Assembly (NCBI RefSeq): GCF_024298765.1 | Contig: NZ_CP101210.1 | Strand: one strand, 5' to 3' | DNA length: 64,000 bases | DNA from: Escherichia coli | GTDB taxonomy: Bacteria; Pseudomonadota; Gammaproteobacteria; Enterobacterales; Enterobacteriaceae | Part shown: piece after piece, positions 27,666 through 37,382 of the stretch | Layout of the letters: the number at the start of each line of letters is the position of its first letter | How positions within the stretch are numbered: the first letter of the stretch is position 1 | The notes under the pieces: generated by a model | What the model was told of the DNA's origin: nothing | Databases searched by the model: none | The model's input: only the letters and a program-made list of their open reading frames with translations | Made by a program: the position numbers and the translations under genes

Positions 27666-28421
27666 TCACTCATAATCAGAACAAGATGATGTATCCTGAG
27701 ATATAAGAAAATCATCAAGAGAACCTCCGGCTTTTATTGCTTCTGCAATAACATTAGGCCGACGACCTTGTCCACTCCAGTACATTGTTTGACCGTTATA
27801 CTCATATCTGTATTTATGCCCTCCTGACACACTTTTTCTGCCTGCCTGTAATTTTTTGCCAAATTCACGTTCGTCGATCATGGTAATGATATAGCGACGC
27901 ATTTCACCCATTCTGAGCTCAATGGCGTCCATCCCAATGAGCTCACCGGTCTTTACCAGACGGTAGTGCTTTGGCCGGTGGGGTTTGGCGGTTCGCTTTT
28001 TGACAAGCAGAGCCTTACCCCGCGAGCTCAGACGTACTGGTACCATCCGCATTTTATCGTGTGCGGTGGCGATCATTCTGCCGATGGTGGAAACACTCGG
28101 GCAGGTCAGATGGCGCTGTGCGCACCAGGGCTTCAGGCGAACAAAAATCTGCTCTTTACCGAGGTTTGGCAGCTCTGTCCTGAGGCGTCGAATCTCTTTC
28201 AGCACATCGGGATGCCAGTGCTTTTTTCGTCGCACCAGAGGTGCCTTACTGTGCGGGATTAGCCCCTCAGGTCCTCCCTTGTTCAGTAACTGACGCCACC
28301 AGTAAAGCGTGCGGCAGGACACGCCAAAGGCTTCAGAAGCCGCAGAAATACCGTGTTTATCCCAGAAGTGCAGAGCCTTCATTCTCATTGTTGCTATATC
28401 AGCCATCACTGAAAGCCTCAA
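27666..28421 (-). mobile_element. IS transposase remnant (IS3/IS481-like N-terminal HTH, truncated catalytic core)
   Basis: N-terminal MKALHFWDKHGISAASEAFGVSCRTLYWWRQLL typical of IS transposase HTH; DDE core begins then is lost to an unrelated C-terminus; track start is TTG, ATG at 28406; no inverted repeats identified. Confidence 0.5.
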
Positions 28422-28899
28422 CGCATAATCGGCCGTTTAGGATAGCCAACCATCAGATGCTGCATTTGCATAGTGCAATCTCCCCTTACTTATCCGGAGG
28501 CAATTGCAATATCTCTGTGAACTTACACACAGGTATAATCAATAAGGGCGTACGGAGATTGCCCGTTATTGCTGCAGGATCGGCAGACTGGTTCCCGTCC
28601 TTGCGCATATAACTGTACAACCACAGAGAAAAGCATCAATGCACGCTTTATGTTGCGTCAGGGCAGCGAACGACTCCTTTTGTTGACGACACATATCACC
28701 TTCTGTACTGCCAATTATGGCATTCAGCGTCTCCCCGAGTTTTAAGCTCCTGCTCTTACGAACCAGCGACAAGCAATAAATAACTATGGCAATGAATCTA
28801 ATAACAGCATAAATATGAGACTCATCGATACTCATCGTGATTAGTATAATCGGGGCAGAATTATATTCACTGTCTGATTTATTATTGAGTTAAATATAA

Positions 28900-29352
28900 T
28901 TAAAGTGTTCTCAAAAGTCTGGCTGGATTACCGGCATACACGCCTTTTACCAGCACGGGCTTTGTAACCACACTACCAGCACCAATCACTGCTCCACTGC
29001 AAATTTCTGTGGTTAAAATGGTCGCTCCGCTACCCACTGTTACAGTGTTACCTAATACGATGCGTATCCAGCTTTCTGCAGAGGCATCGGGACCACCACA
29101 CTTAAAAAGATCATTAGCAAAAGTTACGCCATGACCGATGAAACAGCCATCACCTAAAATGACGTTCTCACAGATGAAACTGTGGGACTGAATTCGGCTC
29201 CGGTTGCCAATGATACATCCCTTCTGTATTTCCACAAAGGGACCGATAAAAACATCATCCCCCAGTTCACATTCATAGAGGTTTACTGGCATGACGACTT
29301 TCACATTTTCACCAAATTTCACATCACGAATGCGGCTGTCAATAACGTTCAT
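28900..29352 (-). CDS. Hexapeptide-repeat (left-handed beta-helix) acetyltransferase
   Basis: 150-aa ORF with repeated [LIV]G-x4 hexapeptide pattern (IGNRSRIQSHSFICENVILGDGCFIGHGVTF...); ATG start. Confidence 0.75.
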   Translation of the reverse strand: MNVIDSRIRDVKFGENVKVVMPVNLYECELGDDVFIGPFVEIQKGCIIGNRSRIQSHSFICENVILGDGCFIGHGVTFANDLFKCGGPDASAESWIRIVLGNTVTVGSGATILTTEICSGAVIGAGSVVTKPVLVKGVYAGNPARLLRTL

Positions 29353-29861
29353 ATCCGTTGTATCCTCCCTCAGGATGATTCTTATCAGAACATTTCACCT
29401 GTCAGAATATTCCCGGTAATGTGATACAAGAGCCAGTCTCACCGGGTACCATGTGTTATTGCTCGTATCCTTTTGCCCGTTACGAGTGTACAACCGGTTT
29501 TATATTTTGCAATCCAGGCCTGTTACACCAGAGCATCCTCTCACTGCCCCCTCACTGGTCAATCCGGGATTCAAAGTCATCCTCCAGCACTAAACCCCAT
29601 ACCAGTCCTGAACCTTCCCTCGCCAGCAGCCAGACTCCTACTGTTCACCACAATCCTCTTCCGTGAATGGCCGTAAGTGCGCAGCACCAAAATAAATCGG
29701 TACTTCCGATGACAGACAGTGAAAGCGTCAGAGAAATATGAACATGAGAATGGAAGCAGATACATGACTTCAGGACGACTTTTTCAGAAAACGAGCTAAG
29801 GGCGTCAGCCAACGACCTTACCGTGGTATACGCTCAGGCGCCGGATGCCGTTTTACCCGGT

Positions 29862-30593
29862 TCACCTGCCATCCAGCAAACGCCCCGGCCCACGACTGCA
29901 ACCATAATTACGTTGCCCGGAACCGTCATGCTGCTTCGTCTCATATTTCACGAGATAACTGGCTCTGTTCCGGGCTTTCTGCATCGCTTCCACATCACCA
30001 CGCTTGATCCAGAGAACAGCGGCTTCACCAGACTTTTTGTCTGAAGCCTTCCAGGTATCAGAACATCCACCCGACAAAGGCGTGTCATCGGAAGAAGGGC
30101 GAACATCAGACGATGCTGGTTTACGGGAAGGCGTCCACCTGGAAAAATGGACCAGGCCATCGCCTTGCCAGGGCTCAAGATGCAGGGCGCTGCACCATGC
30201 CTCCTGGATCATCGTCGCCAGCGAAGACGGTTCGCTGAAATCCCCGAGCGAGCACCAGGTATCTTTGTTGAGCAGTAATATCACGTGATAATGTTTCCTG
30301 CCATACATCTTGCCGAACTCCCGGCACCAGAAATAACCCAGGCTGGTTGCATGCACACGCTGATTGGCACATCTTTTTTTCCGCTGGTAAGCCTGAATTT
30401 TGGCTTTCAGGGATGCAAAAAAACGAGAAATCACCGCTGAATCCGGATCGGGATCCATGATGGTGACAGGCATATACTCAGGGAAACGTAAATCCACCCG
30501 GATTAACGAGACGGCACGGTGCTGCGCCAGGGCACTGTCGAGAAGGCTGTCAAAACGGGATAACCAGTAAGCATTGTGTATTGGTTGATTCAT
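29862..30593 (-). CDS. Inovirus Gp2-family (YfjJ/YagK-like) protein, paralogue 3
   Basis: 243-aa ORF, ATG start, conserved HYHVILLLNKD segment; conserved leader motif immediately upstream (30601-30648). Confidence 0.7.
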   Translation of the reverse strand: MNQPIHNAYWLSRFDSLLDSALAQHRAVSLIRVDLRFPEYMPVTIMDPDPDSAVISRFFASLKAKIQAYQRKKRCANQRVHATSLGYFWCREFGKMYGRKHYHVILLLNKDTWCSLGDFSEPSSLATMIQEAWCSALHLEPWQGDGLVHFSRWTPSRKPASSDVRPSSDDTPLSGGCSDTWKASDKKSGEAAVLWIKRGDVEAMQKARNRASYLVKYETKQHDGSGQRNYGCSRGPGRLLDGR

Positions 30594-30984
30594 GATGAGA
30601 GATCTCCGTTGATTTGGATTGACTTCACATCATTAATCAACGCAGTAAAACTTTACGGCATCCGACATTGAGCAATACTACAACTCTCTGATTAAGAGTG
30701 ATTGAAACGGAACAAACCATCCCGGAACGAAAAGATAATCCTGCACACAGCAGCAAAATACGCAACAACAGCATGAATGGATTTAAAAACGACATGGACG
30801 ACGAGAAAAGTCTGAAGGGAAAAGGAGCCACAGAACATTCGAACAAAACACCAGAAATGCAACCAGAACGCTTCCTGGCAATGCAAATCAACAACAACGC
30901 CAAAACCTACAACTTAATCACACAACTCAATCACGGATGCGAATGACACGCTTAAAACCTGTTTACAGATAACGCCGTAACACG

Positions 30985-31026
30985 ATCATCACCATCACCA
31001 TCACCATCACCATCACCATCACCATC
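30985..31026. repeat. Hexanucleotide simple-sequence repeat (ACCATC)x6 with flanking ATC
   Basis: Read directly: gatcatc(accatc)6ag; no start codon in the poly-His frame (a TAA lies immediately upstream). Confidence 0.85.
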
Positions 31027-31461
31027 AGAATCGATTTTCTCATCCCGAAAATGTTACGTTTCACTACGCACCATAAAAACGATTAACCATCGATAACGTA
31101 AATCTCATCTGAATCAAAACACCAAAACCGTTCATCACACTTTCGCAATGCAAGAAGAAACCTCATGACAAAAAGAATGACCTTACACGGAAAAGAAAAA
31201 CGTCAGGAATCGTTAATGCCTCAATCTGATTGTTATCAAAACATCCAGAAAGTCGTTTAACAGAATCGTCGTAAGCACATCGAAAAGAACGTCAGATTAC
31301 TTCAGGAAAGTTCGGGTTGATTTAGCGTAAAGATACTTTTCTCAAGCTAACGTCGAAACTCGAAATCTCAGGAAAGGTTAAACGTAACATCAGTAAAATC
31401 GAATAGCAGATTGATTGCTTAAACAGAAAGGTTTTACAGCAGCATTAAACTGATTTAGTTA

Positions 31462-31497
31462 ACGTAAAGATTTACTAAACGTAAAGATTTACTAAAC
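31462..31497. repeat. Tandem duplication of a 17-bp unit (cgtaaagatttactaaa)
   Basis: Read directly in the ORF-poor segment; about 100 bp downstream are three spaced copies of acgtgtat(a) (near 31572, 31606, 31636). Confidence 0.7.
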
Positions 31498-32593
31498 TGG
31501 ATGTGTATCAGATCAAACAATGTGTACAGCAATGCTTAATGAAAATACTTGTAGAATTGTTTATGAGAAAGCGTGTATAACACTTACTGAAATGCTTAGT
31601 TAAATACGTGTATGTTTGGTAAAACACTTAAGTAAAATACGTGTATAGTACCATTCCCGACATTCTCAACATCTTCAGACATCCATGCAGACTGAGTGTT
31701 GATTTCAGTTTTTCACGGCCAGCATGGATCTTTACTGTTTAAAAAACATACAGATTTACTCTGAAATTATTTACCCAGGCCTCCCTGAAAAGACCATCCG
31801 GAGCATCCCGTTCGTCAGCTTCCATGTTGTCTTTTACCCCGGAAAGTGATCGCATTTTCCAGCCAGAATGACAGCCATACTGATTATGACGTCTCTCCGG
31901 CCCCTTCACATATAACATTCATGTCAGTCATTTCTTACTGCCTCACTCACCGGAATTCTCCATGCCGGATGAAGCAATTGTTCTGAACTGAGCAGAAGCA
32001 TAACAGCACACAAGGAAACGACTGTGCTATAGATCCTGGAATCAGGATCTTAATGTCAGGAAAACAATGACGACCGGGGATAACCAACAACAACCTGAGT
32101 ACAGAAGAAAGCTTTCCCGCGCACGCCATCATCTTATGTAAGAGGATATGATGCCACCCCCACCTCAGAAGAACCGTCTCCGGGAGAACTTCACTGCATC
32201 CAAAATCCTTTTGCTGAGTTCTCATTCCCCATCATGGCAGCTACAGACATGCCCTGACAGAGCGTATGCGCATTGAGAGAAATAACCATAAATGATGAGA
32301 AGACACTCTATATAACGACAGCATGTTGAGGCATCAAAAATATTCATATAAATATTTTAAGAAAATTTTTTATTGCAAACTACAGGAAATAACATGATGT
32401 CAATATAATTTTTTAAAAAACGTGATATTAATCACATTGTAATTTTCTGTGTTTTTATGTAAATCAGAGAAAAGAGTCCATGAACGTTATTGCATTTTTT
32501 CTGATGTATGGATAAAAGGGGATTCAGGCGAAATTTACTGACAGAGGTGATAAGAGGGGGGTTAAAGAGTTCTATAGAGTTGGTTGTGCATTT

Positions 32594-33463
32594 ATGCCCA
32601 GGGAGTTCATGTCTGTGCATTCACCAGATGAATCTGATCATGTTTTTAGTCGGATGGAATATGAATATTACCGACATAACGATAAATCACCTTCTGTTAA
32701 TGCTGATAATGCAGGCAGAGACGTTGTTCCGGAGTGGGTGCAAAAAGACCCTGTAGCCGCATTCTGGGTATGGATGTTTATATATCATGTTCCTGACAGT
32801 ATTGTCCGACTCTCAGGTGAGCAATATGCAGATTACGGAATTTCCTGTCTGTATGCCAGACTGTTTGCCACAGAAGCAGCTCCAGCTAATCATCAGGCAA
32901 GGATTCGTGTGACGAGAAAATGGCTACAGGAGCTTATAAGGCTAACCGGGACAGAAAATGTATCTGACTTCTTGTATGTCGTTCATTTTTTATGGTCATA
33001 TGCTGAAAAAGTGAACCCCATGACATGGCTTGGTTCCCGGCGGATACATATCAAATGGGCATGGGCGTATCTGCAAAAACATTGCACTGACGAAGAACGT
33101 CACTGTCCTGATATTTCAGAATTTAAAGCTTCAGGGGAGTCACGTCTGTTCATAATAGCTTATGTGCGCCGTGTCTTCATGAAAATCTATTCTGTCGGTA
33201 CTGAACCTCAAAAGTTAAAAGAATTAGTTTATCAGCAGAATGATTTTCTCAGGCGCATGAAGTGCTCATACCAGAAAATGTTCCGGTATGAGAAAACCGA
33301 TTCCCGGGTACAGATAAGTGCCCTGATTTCTCCGGAAGCCAGGAATGCACTCCGGAAAATGGCAAAAAAGAATAATCTGACGCAGGCTGAAATCCTGGAT
33401 AAACTCATCTTATCAGCTGATCGTCTGTTTATGCAGAAAACAGCAGGGGATTATTCCCGTTAA
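32594..33463 (+). CDS. Uncharacterised protein with C-terminal ribbon-helix-helix-like segment
   Basis: 289-aa ORF with ATG start; C-terminal VQISALISPEARNALRKMAKKNNLTQAEILDKLIL fits a beta-strand/helix/helix (CopG/Arc-like) pattern; no other family recognised. Confidence 0.5.
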   Translation: MPREFMSVHSPDESDHVFSRMEYEYYRHNDKSPSVNADNAGRDVVPEWVQKDPVAAFWVWMFIYHVPDSIVRLSGEQYADYGISCLYARLFATEAAPANHQARIRVTRKWLQELIRLTGTENVSDFLYVVHFLWSYAEKVNPMTWLGSRRIHIKWAWAYLQKHCTDEERHCPDISEFKASGESRLFIIAYVRRVFMKIYSVGTEPQKLKELVYQQNDFLRRMKCSYQKMFRYEKTDSRVQISALISPEARNALRKMAKKNNLTQAEILDKLILSADRLFMQKTAGDYSR

Positions 33464-34449
33464 TGAGTTCCACCAGAACCGTTTTTCTTTTTGCTGCTGT
33501 TTTTGCGTTTATGCTGTTCGTACCTTTCTTTTGACGTACAAAGGAATCTTCCATAAACATTGCGGATATATGAGTTGATATACTCCAGCATTCTCTCTTT
33601 TCGTGATTTCCCTTTTTCCTTCGAATCTTCACTTTGAACATTAATGTCCATCAGTTCTTTTATAAACTTATCCAGATTTTCCATGTCATAAAGCAGCATG
33701 AAAAACATCACATTTCCCAGTGATTCCAGTAACTGAGATTCAACCCAGTCCCCATATTTTCTGAAACTTAGCCCTGTTAAAAACTGTTCAAACATTACCC
33801 CTGATACAAAAAGAGATTTTAATCCCAGTCGCTTATATTCCTGGTAAAAAAGTTCAAACGTCGGGGATTCTGAACGGCAAATAAACGAAGACAGCGCCCA
33901 TGGATCAAAATCTGTAACACGCCTCCCCTCCCACACTTCCTGCCGTGTCAGCGGCGGTTCAGCAAACCAGGCGTCCAGCTCAGCCGAATCGCTGTCCCTG
34001 CTCAAAACCTTATACAAACTGCCCGTGAACGGTTGAGGCGGATTTTTGGTTGCTTCATCTTCTGATTGTCTGGATTGTCTGGATTGTCTGGATTGTCTGG
34101 ATTGTCTGAATCCGTCCACTTTTCTCCGGATATTACGCGGGATCAGCATAAAAGGCGGGACATTAAGTGATAAACGTTTACCCGTCATGCGATACCATTG
34201 CCCCACCTCAACCTTAATCCGTGTATCTGACTTTAGCTCAAGTGCCATTATGTTAAGCAGGTACAGATAACGCACCGTATAACAGTCAAAATGTTTCTCC
34301 GGATCAAACGGCTCTGACCGTTCTCTGCACACGAGTCCGCTGCGCTTCAGTATTCGCTGGGTATCTTTCCAGGCCTTACACTGAAGAATGGTGGTAACTC
34401 TGGCCTTATTAGCAATCTCACGCAGCGCATCACTTTGTTGTGCCGTCAT
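33460..34449 (-). CDS. Uncharacterised protein with internal (RQS)5 repeat
   Basis: 329-aa ORF, ATG start preceded by GGGAGGTGAG Shine-Dalgarno; contains an in-frame 9-bp tandem repeat (34062-34106); stop overlaps the stop of the convergent 32594 gene (TTAA). Confidence 0.55.
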   Translation of the reverse strand: MTAQQSDALREIANKARVTTILQCKAWKDTQRILKRSGLVCRERSEPFDPEKHFDCYTVRYLYLLNIMALELKSDTRIKVEVGQWYRMTGKRLSLNVPPFMLIPRNIRRKVDGFRQSRQSRQSRQSRQSEDEATKNPPQPFTGSLYKVLSRDSDSAELDAWFAEPPLTRQEVWEGRRVTDFDPWALSSFICRSESPTFELFYQEYKRLGLKSLFVSGVMFEQFLTGLSFRKYGDWVESQLLESLGNVMFFMLLYDMENLDKFIKELMDINVQSEDSKEKGKSRKERMLEYINSYIRNVYGRFLCTSKERYEQHKRKNSSKKKNGSGGTH

Positions 34450-34554
34450 CTCACCTCCCGCACTCTGTCACTCCAGATTTTTTCACGTCCATATTACCTG
34501 AATGATAAGCCGGATTAGTGTGATCCGGTTCAGCGAAATCAACAGGATAACGGT

Positions 34555-35439
34555 ATGTCATTCAGCCATTCTTCCCTCTCCGCACAAGTGAAATCACATC
34601 TGACGTTTCTTCCTGAAGAAATTCGCCAGAAAATCCTTGAACATCTCCACAGTGTTATTCATTACGAGCCCGTGATTGGCATTATGGGTAAATCCGGAAC
34701 AGGCAAAAGCAGTCTGTGTAATGCCATTTTTCAGTCCCGTATCTGCGCCACACATCCTCTGAACGGCTGCACCCGCCAGGCTCATCGTCTTACCCTGCAG
34801 TTCGGTGAACGCAGAATGACGCTGGTCGATCTGCCCGGCATTGGTGAAACACCGCAGCATGATCAGGAATACCGGACACTTTATCGTCAGCTGCTACCGG
34901 AACTGGATCTGATTATCTGGATCCTGCGGGCTGATGAACGTGCGTATGCTGCTGATATTGCCATGCATCAGTTTTTACTGAATGAAGGCGCAGATCCCTC
35001 GCGTTTTCTGTTTGTTCTCAGCCATGCCGATCGCGTGTTTCCTGCTGAAGAATGGAATGCCACAGAAAAATGCCCGTCCCGTCAGCAGTCGCTCTCACTG
35101 GCGACGGTGACAGCCCGGGTGGCAACCCTGTTCCCTTCATCATTTCCGGTACTCTCCGTTGCTGCACCTGTCGGCTGGAACCTTCCGGCGTTTGTGTCGC
35201 TGATGATCCACGCACTGCCACCACAGGCAACCAGCGCGGTGTATTCACATATCCGGGGAGAAAACCGCTCTGAACAGGCCCGGAAACACGCACAACAGAC
35301 TTTTGGTGAAACCATCGGGAAAAGTTTTGACGACGCCGTTGCCCGTTTCAGTTTTCCGGCCTGGATGTTACAGCTTCTGCGCAAAACCCGGGACCGCATT
35401 ATCCACCTGCTGGTCACACTGTGGGATCACCTGTTCTGA
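34555..35439 (+). CDS. YeeP/YkfA/YfjP-family GTPase
   Basis: 294-aa ORF with P-loop GKSGTGKSSLCNAIF and DLPGIGE (G3) motifs; position typical of CP4-44/CP4-57-like elements. Confidence 0.8.
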   Translation: MSFSHSSLSAQVKSHLTFLPEEIRQKILEHLHSVIHYEPVIGIMGKSGTGKSSLCNAIFQSRICATHPLNGCTRQAHRLTLQFGERRMTLVDLPGIGETPQHDQEYRTLYRQLLPELDLIIWILRADERAYAADIAMHQFLLNEGADPSRFLFVLSHADRVFPAEEWNATEKCPSRQQSLSLATVTARVATLFPSSFPVLSVAAPVGWNLPAFVSLMIHALPPQATSAVYSHIRGENRSEQARKHAQQTFGETIGKSFDDAVARFSFPAWMLQLLRKTRDRIIHLLVTLWDHLF

Positions 35440-35557
35440 ACGCCCCGGAGTCCCCCGTGGCAACCGTATACCTTTACACGACAACGGATTACGGTAACCA
35501 CTGCCGTATACCGTCTGTCATTATCAATAACACGCTCTTTAATTTCAGAGGTCAGTC

Positions 35558-36235
35558 ATGAATACCAGAATTCTTTTTCCCCTGCTGTTCACTGTGGCAT
35601 CATTCTCCGCCTCCGCCGGCAACTGGGCTGTCAAAAACGGCTGGTGTCAGACCATGACGGAAGATGGTCAGGCGCTGGTAATGCTGAAAAATGGCACGAT
35701 TGGTATTACCGGCCTGATGCAGGGATGCCCGAATGGTGTACAGACGCTCCTGGGCAGCCGTATCAGTATTAACGGTAACCTGATCCCCACATCACAAATG
35801 TGTAATCAGCAGACGGGATTCAGGGCTGTTGAGGTGGAAATCGGACAGGCGCCGGAAATGGTCAAAAAAGCCGTTCACTCCATAGCAGAGCGTGATGTGT
35901 CCGTTTTACAGGCATTTGGTGTACGAATGGAATTCACCCGCGGTGATATGCTGAAGGTCTGTCCGAAATTTGTCACATCACTTGCCGGTTTTTCCCCGAA
36001 ACAGACGACCACTATTAATAAAGATTCCGTCCTGCAGGCTGCCCGGCAGGCATACGCCCGGGAATATGACGAGGAAACAACAGAAACCGCTGATTTTGGC
36101 TCTTACGAAGTAAAAGGCAATAAGGTTGAGTTTGAAGTATTCAATCCTGAAGACCGTGCGTACGACAAAGTGACCGTCACGGTTGGTGCTGACGGTAATG
36201 CCACCGGCGCCAGCGTTGAATTTATCGGAAAATAG
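35558..36235 (+). CDS. Secreted/periplasmic hypothetical protein
   Basis: 225-aa ORF with cleavable signal peptide [20 protein letters not shown]; ATG start. Confidence 0.6.
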
Positions 36236-36240
36236 CCGGT

Positions 36241-36474
36241 ATGTCGGACTGCCACCCTGTTTTATTGCCCGAAGGCCCTTTCTCACGCGAACAGGCGGTT
36301 GCCGTCACAACAGCTTACCGCAATGTGCTTATTGAGGATGACCAGGGAACGCATTTCCGGCTGGTTATCCGCAATGCCGAAGGGCAGCTACGCTGGCGGT
36401 GCTGGAATTTTGAACCTGATGCCGGAAAACAGCTAAATTCGTATCTCGCCAGTGAGGGAATTCTCAGGCAATAA
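36241..36474 (+). CDS. DUF905-like small protein (YkfF/YpjJ-like)
   Basis: 77-aa ORF; [55 protein letters not shown] resembles the YkfF family as recalled. Confidence 0.5.
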
Positions 36475-36563
36475 ACGTCTTCATTTCATCCATCAGGCCG
36501 CGTCTTCTCCGGGAGACGCGGCCTTTTCGTTTATACCGCTAATTCATTCATAAGGAGCAAAGT

Positions 36564-37382
36564 ATGCAATTAGCCAGTCGTTTTGGTCATGTAAATCAGA
36601 TCCGTCGGGAGCGCCCACTGACACGCGAAGAACTGATGTACCACGTCCCGAGTATTTTTGGAGAAGACCGGCACACCTCCCGCAGTGAACGGTATGCGTA
36701 CATTCCCACCATCACCGTCCTGGAAAATCTGCAGCGGGAAGGCTTTCAGCCGTTCTTCGCCTGCCAGACCCGTGTGCGCGACCAGAGCCGCCGGGAATAT
36801 ACCAAACATATGCTGCGTCTGCGGCGGGCCGGACAGATAACTGGTCAGCATGTGCCTGAAATTATTCTGCTCAACTCCCATGACGGTTCATCCAGCTACC
36901 AGATGTTACCCGGATATTTTCGTGCCATTTGTACCAATGGACTGGTCTGCGGTCAGTCTCTGGGAGAATTGCGTGTTCCACACCGGGGAAATGTGGTGGA
37001 GAAAGTTATTGAAGGGGCTTACGAGGTGGTGGGCGTGTTTGACCGGATAGAGGAGAAGCGTGATGCCATGCAGTCGCTGGTCCTGCCGCCACCGGCACGC
37101 CAGGCGCTGGCACAGGCGGCACTGACTTACCGTTATGGTGACGAACATCACCCCGTCACCACCGCCGACATTCTGACGCCACGACGCCGGGAGGATTACG
37201 GTAAGGACCTGTGGAGTACTTATCAGACCATCCAGGAGAATATGCTGAAAGGCGGAATTTCCGGTCGCAGTGCCAGAGGAAAACGTATCCACACCCGTGC
37301 CATTCACAGCATCGACACCGACATTAAGCTCAATCGCGCATTGTGGGTGATGGCAGAAACGCTACTGGAGAGCCTGCGCTGA
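36564..37382 (+). CDS. DUF932-like protein (YfjQ/YafZ-like)
   Basis: 272-aa ORF in the conserved position upstream of the anti-restriction/radC genes; family assignment from memory. Confidence 0.55.
   Translation: MQLASRFGHVNQIRRERPLTREELMYHVPSIFGEDRHTSRSERYAYIPTITVLENLQREGFQPFFACQTRVRDQSRREYTKHMLRLRRAGQITGQHVPEIILLNSHDGSSSYQMLPGYFRAICTNGLVCGQSLGELRVPHRGNVVEKVIEGAYEVVGVFDRIEEKRDAMQSLVLPPPARQALAQAALTYRYGDEHHPVTTADILTPRRREDYGKDLWSTYQTIQENMLKGGISGRSARGKRIHTRAIHSIDTDIKLNRALWVMAETLLESLR

Follow-up and report, generated by a model that had tools for sequence, protein, structure and literature searches.

An in-frame 9-bp tandem repeat of variable copy number in a conserved hypothetical gene of an Escherichia coli chromosomal island

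Tandem repeats of variable copy number are known from bacteria in several forms. In the simple-sequence contingency loci of Haemophilus and Neisseria, slipped-strand mispairing causes phase variation, and longer perfect arrays are more mutable. In-frame repeat-length polymorphisms also occur in bacterial proteins, such as the domain II repeats of E. coli TolA and the small basic repeats of Neisseria PilQ. In addition, variable-number tandem repeats (VNTRs) serve in multiple-locus VNTR analysis (MLVA) of E. coli, among them the GECM-10 CVN loci (PMC3877011, PMC3407997). Here we describe a perfect 9-bp tandem repeat in a stretch of 64,000 nucleotides of E. coli DNA (NCBI RefSeq assembly GCF_024298765.1, contig NZ_CP101210.1; "the window" hereafter means this whole stretch). 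The repeat lies on a chromosomal island within a minus-strand gene for a protein of 329 amino acids (aa), and its copy number differs among genomes by whole, in-frame units. It is, apparently, an undescribed VNTR. The array and its host gene are placed as follows.

34064..34108, minus strand: five-unit perfect tandem array, GATTGTCTG on the plus strand and CAGACAATC on the coding strand (Tandem Repeats Finder and sequence)
34063-34107 (codon register), minus strand: (RQS)5 codons, residues 115-129 (codon reading)
33460..34449, minus strand: host gene, 329-aa conserved hypothetical protein (open reading frame; RefSeq WP_021573508.1)

Tandem Repeats Finder reported the array with period 9, 5.0 copies, 100% matches, zero indels and a score of 90, the highest score of any tandem array in the window. 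Read directly on the plus strand, the sequence is CATCTTCT, then GATTGTCTG five times, then AATCC, and the array totals 45 nt. The original prediction of a five-unit, in-frame 9-bp repeat in this protein was thus borne out by the repeat finder, the sequence and the codons. The coordinates given there (34062-34106) cover the same array but are 2 nt out of register. The unit make-up given there, one CTGATTGTC followed by four TGGATTGTC, did not hold: once the register is corrected, the five units are the same and none is a variant. On the minus strand the codons are AGA CAA TCC four times and AGA CAA TCA once, and the protein across the array reads F114-(RQS)5-E130. By chance, 64 kb would hold about 3e-17 perfect 45-nt tracts of period 9, counting both strands, so the array is far beyond chance. 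A plus-strand open reading frame of 74 aa (34046-34270), which encodes a (DCL)n protein over the repeat, was discounted as a side effect of reading the repeat in a different frame.

To compare copy number across genomes, a 371-bp query centred on the repeat was searched against 5,426 complete E. coli genomes, and the locus was found in 469 of them. Depending on the query, the island locus is present in 469 to 741 of the 5,426 genomes. Matches of 380, 371, 362, 353 and 344 bp were obtained, and in each class the identity equalled the length ratio, which means zero mismatches. The classes correspond to the following alleles.

6 copies: 380-bp match, 2 records (N21, N54)
5 copies: 371-bp match, 2 records (ACN002, XB2)
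4 copies: 362-bp match, 9 records (mostly poultry GPEC strains, turkey 64.1 and two human isolates)
3 copies: 353-bp match, 1 record (YP3)
2 copies: 344-bp match, about 178 records (many, for example 55989)

Representative loci were then read, and they contained perfect arrays of 6, 5, 4, 3, 2 or 1 units, always at this site. Every locus read consisted of perfect units, and the length classes are separated by multiples of 9 bp. Over the whole gene of about 1 kb, the alleles with 2 to 6 copies show 0 substitutions outside the array, and six loci with 4 or 6 copies have identical flanks over about 2.95 kb. Repeat number is therefore the sole polymorphism of this allele, and change in the array outpaces the combined point mutation of about 950 bp. 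The reading frame is kept throughout: every change is one of whole 9-bp units, and each allele, from 1 to 6 copies, is annotated as an intact coding sequence, at lengths of 933 to 999 bp. The original prediction had expected in-frame variation in copy number, and an identical number in all homologous loci had been set beforehand as the result that would speak against it. The numbers differed, within identical flanks.

The variation is modest. Among the records of the lineage with at least two copies, 14 of about 192 depart from the two-copy state. In about 194 records the allele is of the diverged MRY15-117 type, about 83% identical, with one unit, and since 191 of these 194 are at least 99% identical, it is essentially without length change. 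On the haplotype that carries an identical neighbouring gene for a ribbon-helix-helix (RHH) protein, the 4-, 5- and 6-copy states coexist in 13 records. This shared RHH gene suggests stepwise change within one haplotype. Furthermore, groups of similarly named isolates have one allele in common (Res13-Lact, six isolates; NDM3-6; GPEC).

In a metagenome scan for at least three perfect units, contigs with 3, 4 and 5 copies of this locus were found, with 0-1 mismatch in the remaining gene. The other 38 matches were unrelated loci having the same 9-mer. Arrays of GATTGTCTG with up to 12 copies were also seen in environmental metagenome contigs that are unrelated and have other flanking sequence (L034 6-113; L041, L045; L033, L047), and these are convergent occurrences, with no homology to this locus. 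We also looked up synthetic alleles by exact match among about 15 billion proteins. The same protein backbone occurred with 1 copy on 16 contigs, with 2 copies on at least 1000 and with 3 copies on 77. Because these three forms share one backbone, contraction as well as expansion occurs. Proteins with 4 to 10 copies had no exact match in this collection, which is uninformative on their frequency, since RefSeq genomes carry 4 to 6. No array of more than 6 units was found at this locus in the complete genomes and metagenomes.

The differences in copy number could in principle be assembly or sequencing errors. Repeats in general can be miscounted, and nothing more specific speaks for this explanation. 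However, arrays of 18-54 bp are much shorter than sequencing reads, and every state except 3 copies is present in at least two independent complete assemblies. Metagenome contigs of independent origin again show 3, 4 and 5 copies, and the protein with 3 copies was matched on 77 contigs. We regard an artefact as hardly credible.

We propose that the array is an in-frame VNTR that gains and loses whole units by slippage or unequal exchange, and that these changes are tolerated and probably near-neutral. We put the probability of this reading at roughly 0.8. Judging from the protein alignments, the ancestral protein had one RQS; RQSRQS marks a sub-lineage, and further expansion is found only in that sub-lineage. 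In one allele lineage, a single ancestral 9-bp unit, whose RQS codons follow the invariant IRRKVDGF motif without a gap, would have been duplicated. The duplication would have supplied a tandem substrate, from which whole units have since been gained and lost through replication slippage or unequal exchange between perfect direct repeats. The outcome would be a series of alleles, from 1 unit up to 6, in which every unit adds three residues to a linker, with stepwise change in one island haplotype once the array had become longer. Because the DNA units are identical, the array probably arose recently. DNA-identical units are what recent slippage, and not selection on the protein sequence, would be expected to leave.

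The pattern is also what length-dependent slipped-strand mispairing at a modest rate predicts, and the locus illustrates such length dependence: a single copy is stable, two are mostly so, and arrays of 4 to 6 are polymorphic. The original prediction had spoken of a slipped-strand signature. Its copy-number part was observed, and slippage is most plausibly the mutational mechanism, as judged from the pattern. That interpretation is thus supported with the qualification that the variation is modest and the mechanism is read from the distribution of alleles. Since the alleles stay in frame, two copies dominate and similarly named isolates share an allele, the locus looks like a modest-rate VNTR and not like a hypermutable contingency locus, and it is no phase-variation switch. 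Nothing in these sequences points to rates of at least 1e-3 as at contingency loci.

The comparison with contingency loci is therefore one of mechanism. The presumed mechanism is the same, namely slippage on perfect tandem repeats. However, the unit here is a multiple of three inside an open reading frame, and there is no frameshift and no on/off switching; the array acts neither by frameshift nor by promoter spacing, one of which characterizes a phase-variable locus. In addition, copy number here appears stable within the groups of similarly named isolates. The TolA and PilQ type of repeat is alike in that units of whole codons vary by strain and change the length of a flexible segment while the folded domains are undisturbed. 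In contrast to those repeats, the array described here is very short and recent in one allele lineage, and it is no ancient feature of its family.

With the E. coli MLVA loci the array has in common short perfect units, conserved flanks and strain differences of whole units. The features of a VNTR, namely short units arranged head to tail, polymorphism with conserved flanks and changes by whole units, were all found. Some CVN loci yield "no product" in many isolates (PMC3877011), and like some of them, the 9-bp array sits on accessory DNA of only a subset of strains. Unlike MLVA loci in use, it has a narrow allele range (1-6) and one dominant allele, and its discriminatory power would be low. 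The array could be matched to no named E. coli MLVA locus (GECM-10: CVN001-CVN017, CCR001), though the MLVA papers checked print no repeat sequences. The repeat dimer (as 16-mers) and the peptide RQSRQSRQS had no match in the searchable literature, where again the MLVA papers print no repeat sequences. Single 9-mers did match, in 1,560 papers, and these matches were unrelated, mostly primers. The importance of the locus is modest: it is an ordinary length polymorphism, which alone raises no new biological question.

The place of the repeat in the protein bears on whether its length matters. Two further parts of the host gene are needed here.

34108..34131, minus strand: codons of the IRRKVDGF motif, residues 107-114, directly N-terminal to the repeat (alignments A1 and A2)
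34030..34107, minus strand: codons of the linker from F114 to F141 (FTGSLY motif), residues 115-140, of which the repeat is the N-terminal part

E. coli ACN002 and XB2 carry the host gene with 100% identity, as WP_021573508.1 ("hypothetical protein"). Scans with Pfam, NCBIfam, PHROGs and PADLOC profiles placed its product in no family, and no known fold or structural relative was found. The protein's own family has few members, with 48 representatives among 1.84 billion proteins clustered at 50%, and every named match among the close relatives is annotated "hypothetical". R108, R109, K110 and F114 are invariant or nearly so in both alignments. In the remote homologs of alignment A2 (21-29% identity), P-x-x-IRRK-x-x-F-x-Q is nearly invariant and is followed by a segment without sequence conservation and then by an F-x-GSLY motif. 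This linker measures 13-28 residues in the family and 14-29 residues in the alleles with 1 to 6 copies. The first unit retains the conserved F-R-Q spacing in every allele, and further units lengthen the linker. Because linker length is already variable across the family, length changes are probably tolerated, and near-neutrality is most likely in light of the alignments and the structure model.

An AlphaFold2 (AF2) model was built from alignment A2, with remote homologs included (mean predicted local distance difference test, pLDDT, 84.3; predicted template modelling score, pTM, 0.82). A run on the shallow, near-identical alignment A1 reached a pLDDT of 45.7 and was discarded. The AF2 model contains a helix at residues 105-126 that spans the conserved motif and most RQS units, with confidence that declines along the repeat (block means 83, 60 and 55). 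It is followed by coil with pLDDT below 50 at residues 129-135, the lowest confidence of the model. In alleles P0003 and P0017 we observed another short in-frame tandem duplication, RSDTRPDTRIK / RPDTRPDTRIK, near residue 73, which the window allele does not have. It lies at about columns 79-90 of alignment A1 and is a second duplication-prone site in the host gene.

Copy number might instead be adaptive, setting the spacing or helix length between the IRRKVDGF helix and the C-terminal helical domain and thereby modulating how active this core protein of the element is, with lengths selected by lineage. The repeat begins right after the family's most conserved motif, and most units continue the modelled helix. 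In addition, expanded alleles persist in several poultry and extra-intestinal isolates and are not singletons. The observed range ends at 6 copies, where the linker has 29 residues, about as many as the longest in the family (28), and this hints at an upper limit. However, two copies are dominant (about 178 of about 192 records), about half of the loci carry the diverged single-unit allele, and the linkers of remote homologs are unrelated in sequence and of many lengths. Furthermore, the units are identical at the DNA level, with no sign of protein-level selection for RQS. We consider such tuning unlikely. A more specific form of the idea, a linker-length rheostat, is more doubtful still. Here copy number would alter the presentation of the IRRKVDGF helix to the C-terminal domain or to partners encoded next door (a GTPase and the RHH protein) and change island maintenance or regulation, and expanded alleles would be selected in avian and extra-intestinal pathogenic lineages. 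If this were true, the 9-bp array and a more variable (CATCAC)n repeat 3 kb away would form a small mutational hotspot on the island.

Several points count against a near-neutral VNTR driven by slippage. The same pattern could result from unequal recombination or from gene conversion among island copies, and some genomes carry 2-3 paralogous copies. The repeat lies right against the best-conserved motif in the protein, and its first units extend helix 105-126 in the AF2 model, so length could matter. The expanded alleles come mainly from poultry and from extra-intestinal isolates (cerebrospinal fluid, blood, uterus), a skew that could reflect shared island ancestry or selection. Finally, the census consists of BLAST length classes and identity bands, in which representative loci, not all 469 records, were read.

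The codons of the repeat suggest one more possibility. AGA is a rare arginine codon in E. coli, and each unit contains one, so copy number might tune how fast the host protein is translated or how much of it is made. The gene has 11 AGA codons, and 5 of them fall within the 15 codons of the repeat. However, the repeat places AGA at every third codon and not consecutively, and such codons are common elsewhere in this horizontally acquired gene of 44% GC (6 AGA and 3 AGG outside the repeat). Translational attenuation of this kind is very improbable.

The window represents the same chromosomal island as in ACN002, adjoining cadC, with microcin H47 genes and a CP4-like module. The module encodes a GTPase, DUF905, DUF932, antirestriction, RadC-like JAB and DUF987 proteins and a YeeU/CbtA toxin-antitoxin pair. 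The IS2 of ACN002 (L001 9185-10413) is missing from the window at about 23980, where the alignment offset shifts by 1336 bp. Besides IS2, the window and the ACN002 island differ at scattered sites; the window therefore stems from a close relative and is not ACN002 DNA. The neighbours of the host gene are as follows.

32594..33463, plus strand: convergent gene, 289 aa, with a C-terminal RepA/RepB-like ribbon-helix-helix (open reading frame; weak NCBIfam and PHROG matches)
34555..35439, plus strand: divergent GTPase gene, MMR_HSR1 domain, 294 aa (Pfam, annotation, synteny)

The host gene and these two neighbours form a three-gene cassette (32594-35439) in which the 3' ends of the RHH gene and the host gene overlap by 4 bp (33460-33463). 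The 289-aa protein is labelled "replication regulatory RepB family protein" in some genomes. Order, orientation and the 4-bp overlap are kept around a homolog of 29% identity on a metagenome contig (L013 4010-6652). The element of that homolog also carries WYL, DUF932, RadC and CbeA/CbtA genes, and its convergent protein is a RepB-RCR_reg-like RHH protein. Around a second remote homolog, on a short contig, the convergent RHH partner is kept, with no overlap. Because synteny is conserved around remote homologs, the host gene is, on comparative grounds, a core gene of CP4-like integrative elements. The locus thus points to a conserved cassette of these elements that encodes an RHH protein, an orphan-fold protein and a GTPase. 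Residues 182-285 of the GTPase weakly match (E = 2.3e-7) the PADLOC LeoBC model, a dynamin-like component of a defence system.

RHH proteins commonly bind short tandem direct repeats, as in the MetJ metboxes and the omega heptads. The array could accordingly be a putative operator or iteron embedded in coding sequence, and the neighbour with its weak RepA/RepB-like RHH signature would be a candidate to bind it. Nevertheless, the array sits about 340 bp inside the open reading frame and not at a promoter, and the 9-mer is clustered nowhere else in the window, even with one mismatch allowed. Furthermore, copy number is not conserved: about half of the homologous loci have a single unit and the remote homologs have none, while the RHH neighbour is kept. 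An operator or iteron array was therefore rejected, as it is intragenic, its 9-mer does not recur in the window and it is not conserved with the RHH gene; we hold a DNA-level function of this kind to be highly unlikely.

A second VNTR was observed at 30987-31027, some 3 kb away from the 9-bp repeat: a perfect (CATCAC)n array of 6.8 copies (Tandem Repeats Finder) in an unannotated intergenic region. Otherwise identical loci have 4.5, 5.5, 6.5 or 7.5 copies, and the number differs even between strains that have the 9-bp array in equal copy number (N21 and N54; the window and XB2). Thus the hexamer repeat is more mutable than the 9-bp array. It is missing from 55989, where the sequence is different. 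Together the two repeats could help to sub-type island-carrying E. coli (avian, neonatal-meningitis and bloodstream), though one allele of the 9-bp array dominates.

An Rfam scan of 28000-37000 gave one sub-threshold match to an archaeal snoRNA, taken as noise, and no family in 30947-32593. Over its roughly 1.65 kb this last region lacks any annotated gene in ACN002, and it has a low GC content of 38.5% and a plus strand strongly rich in A and C near its start. Besides the (CATCAC)n repeat, it holds a 17-bp tandem repeat, GATTTACTAAACGTAAA, of 2.7 copies (31452-31497), and it could be a candidate regulatory or origin-like region of the island.
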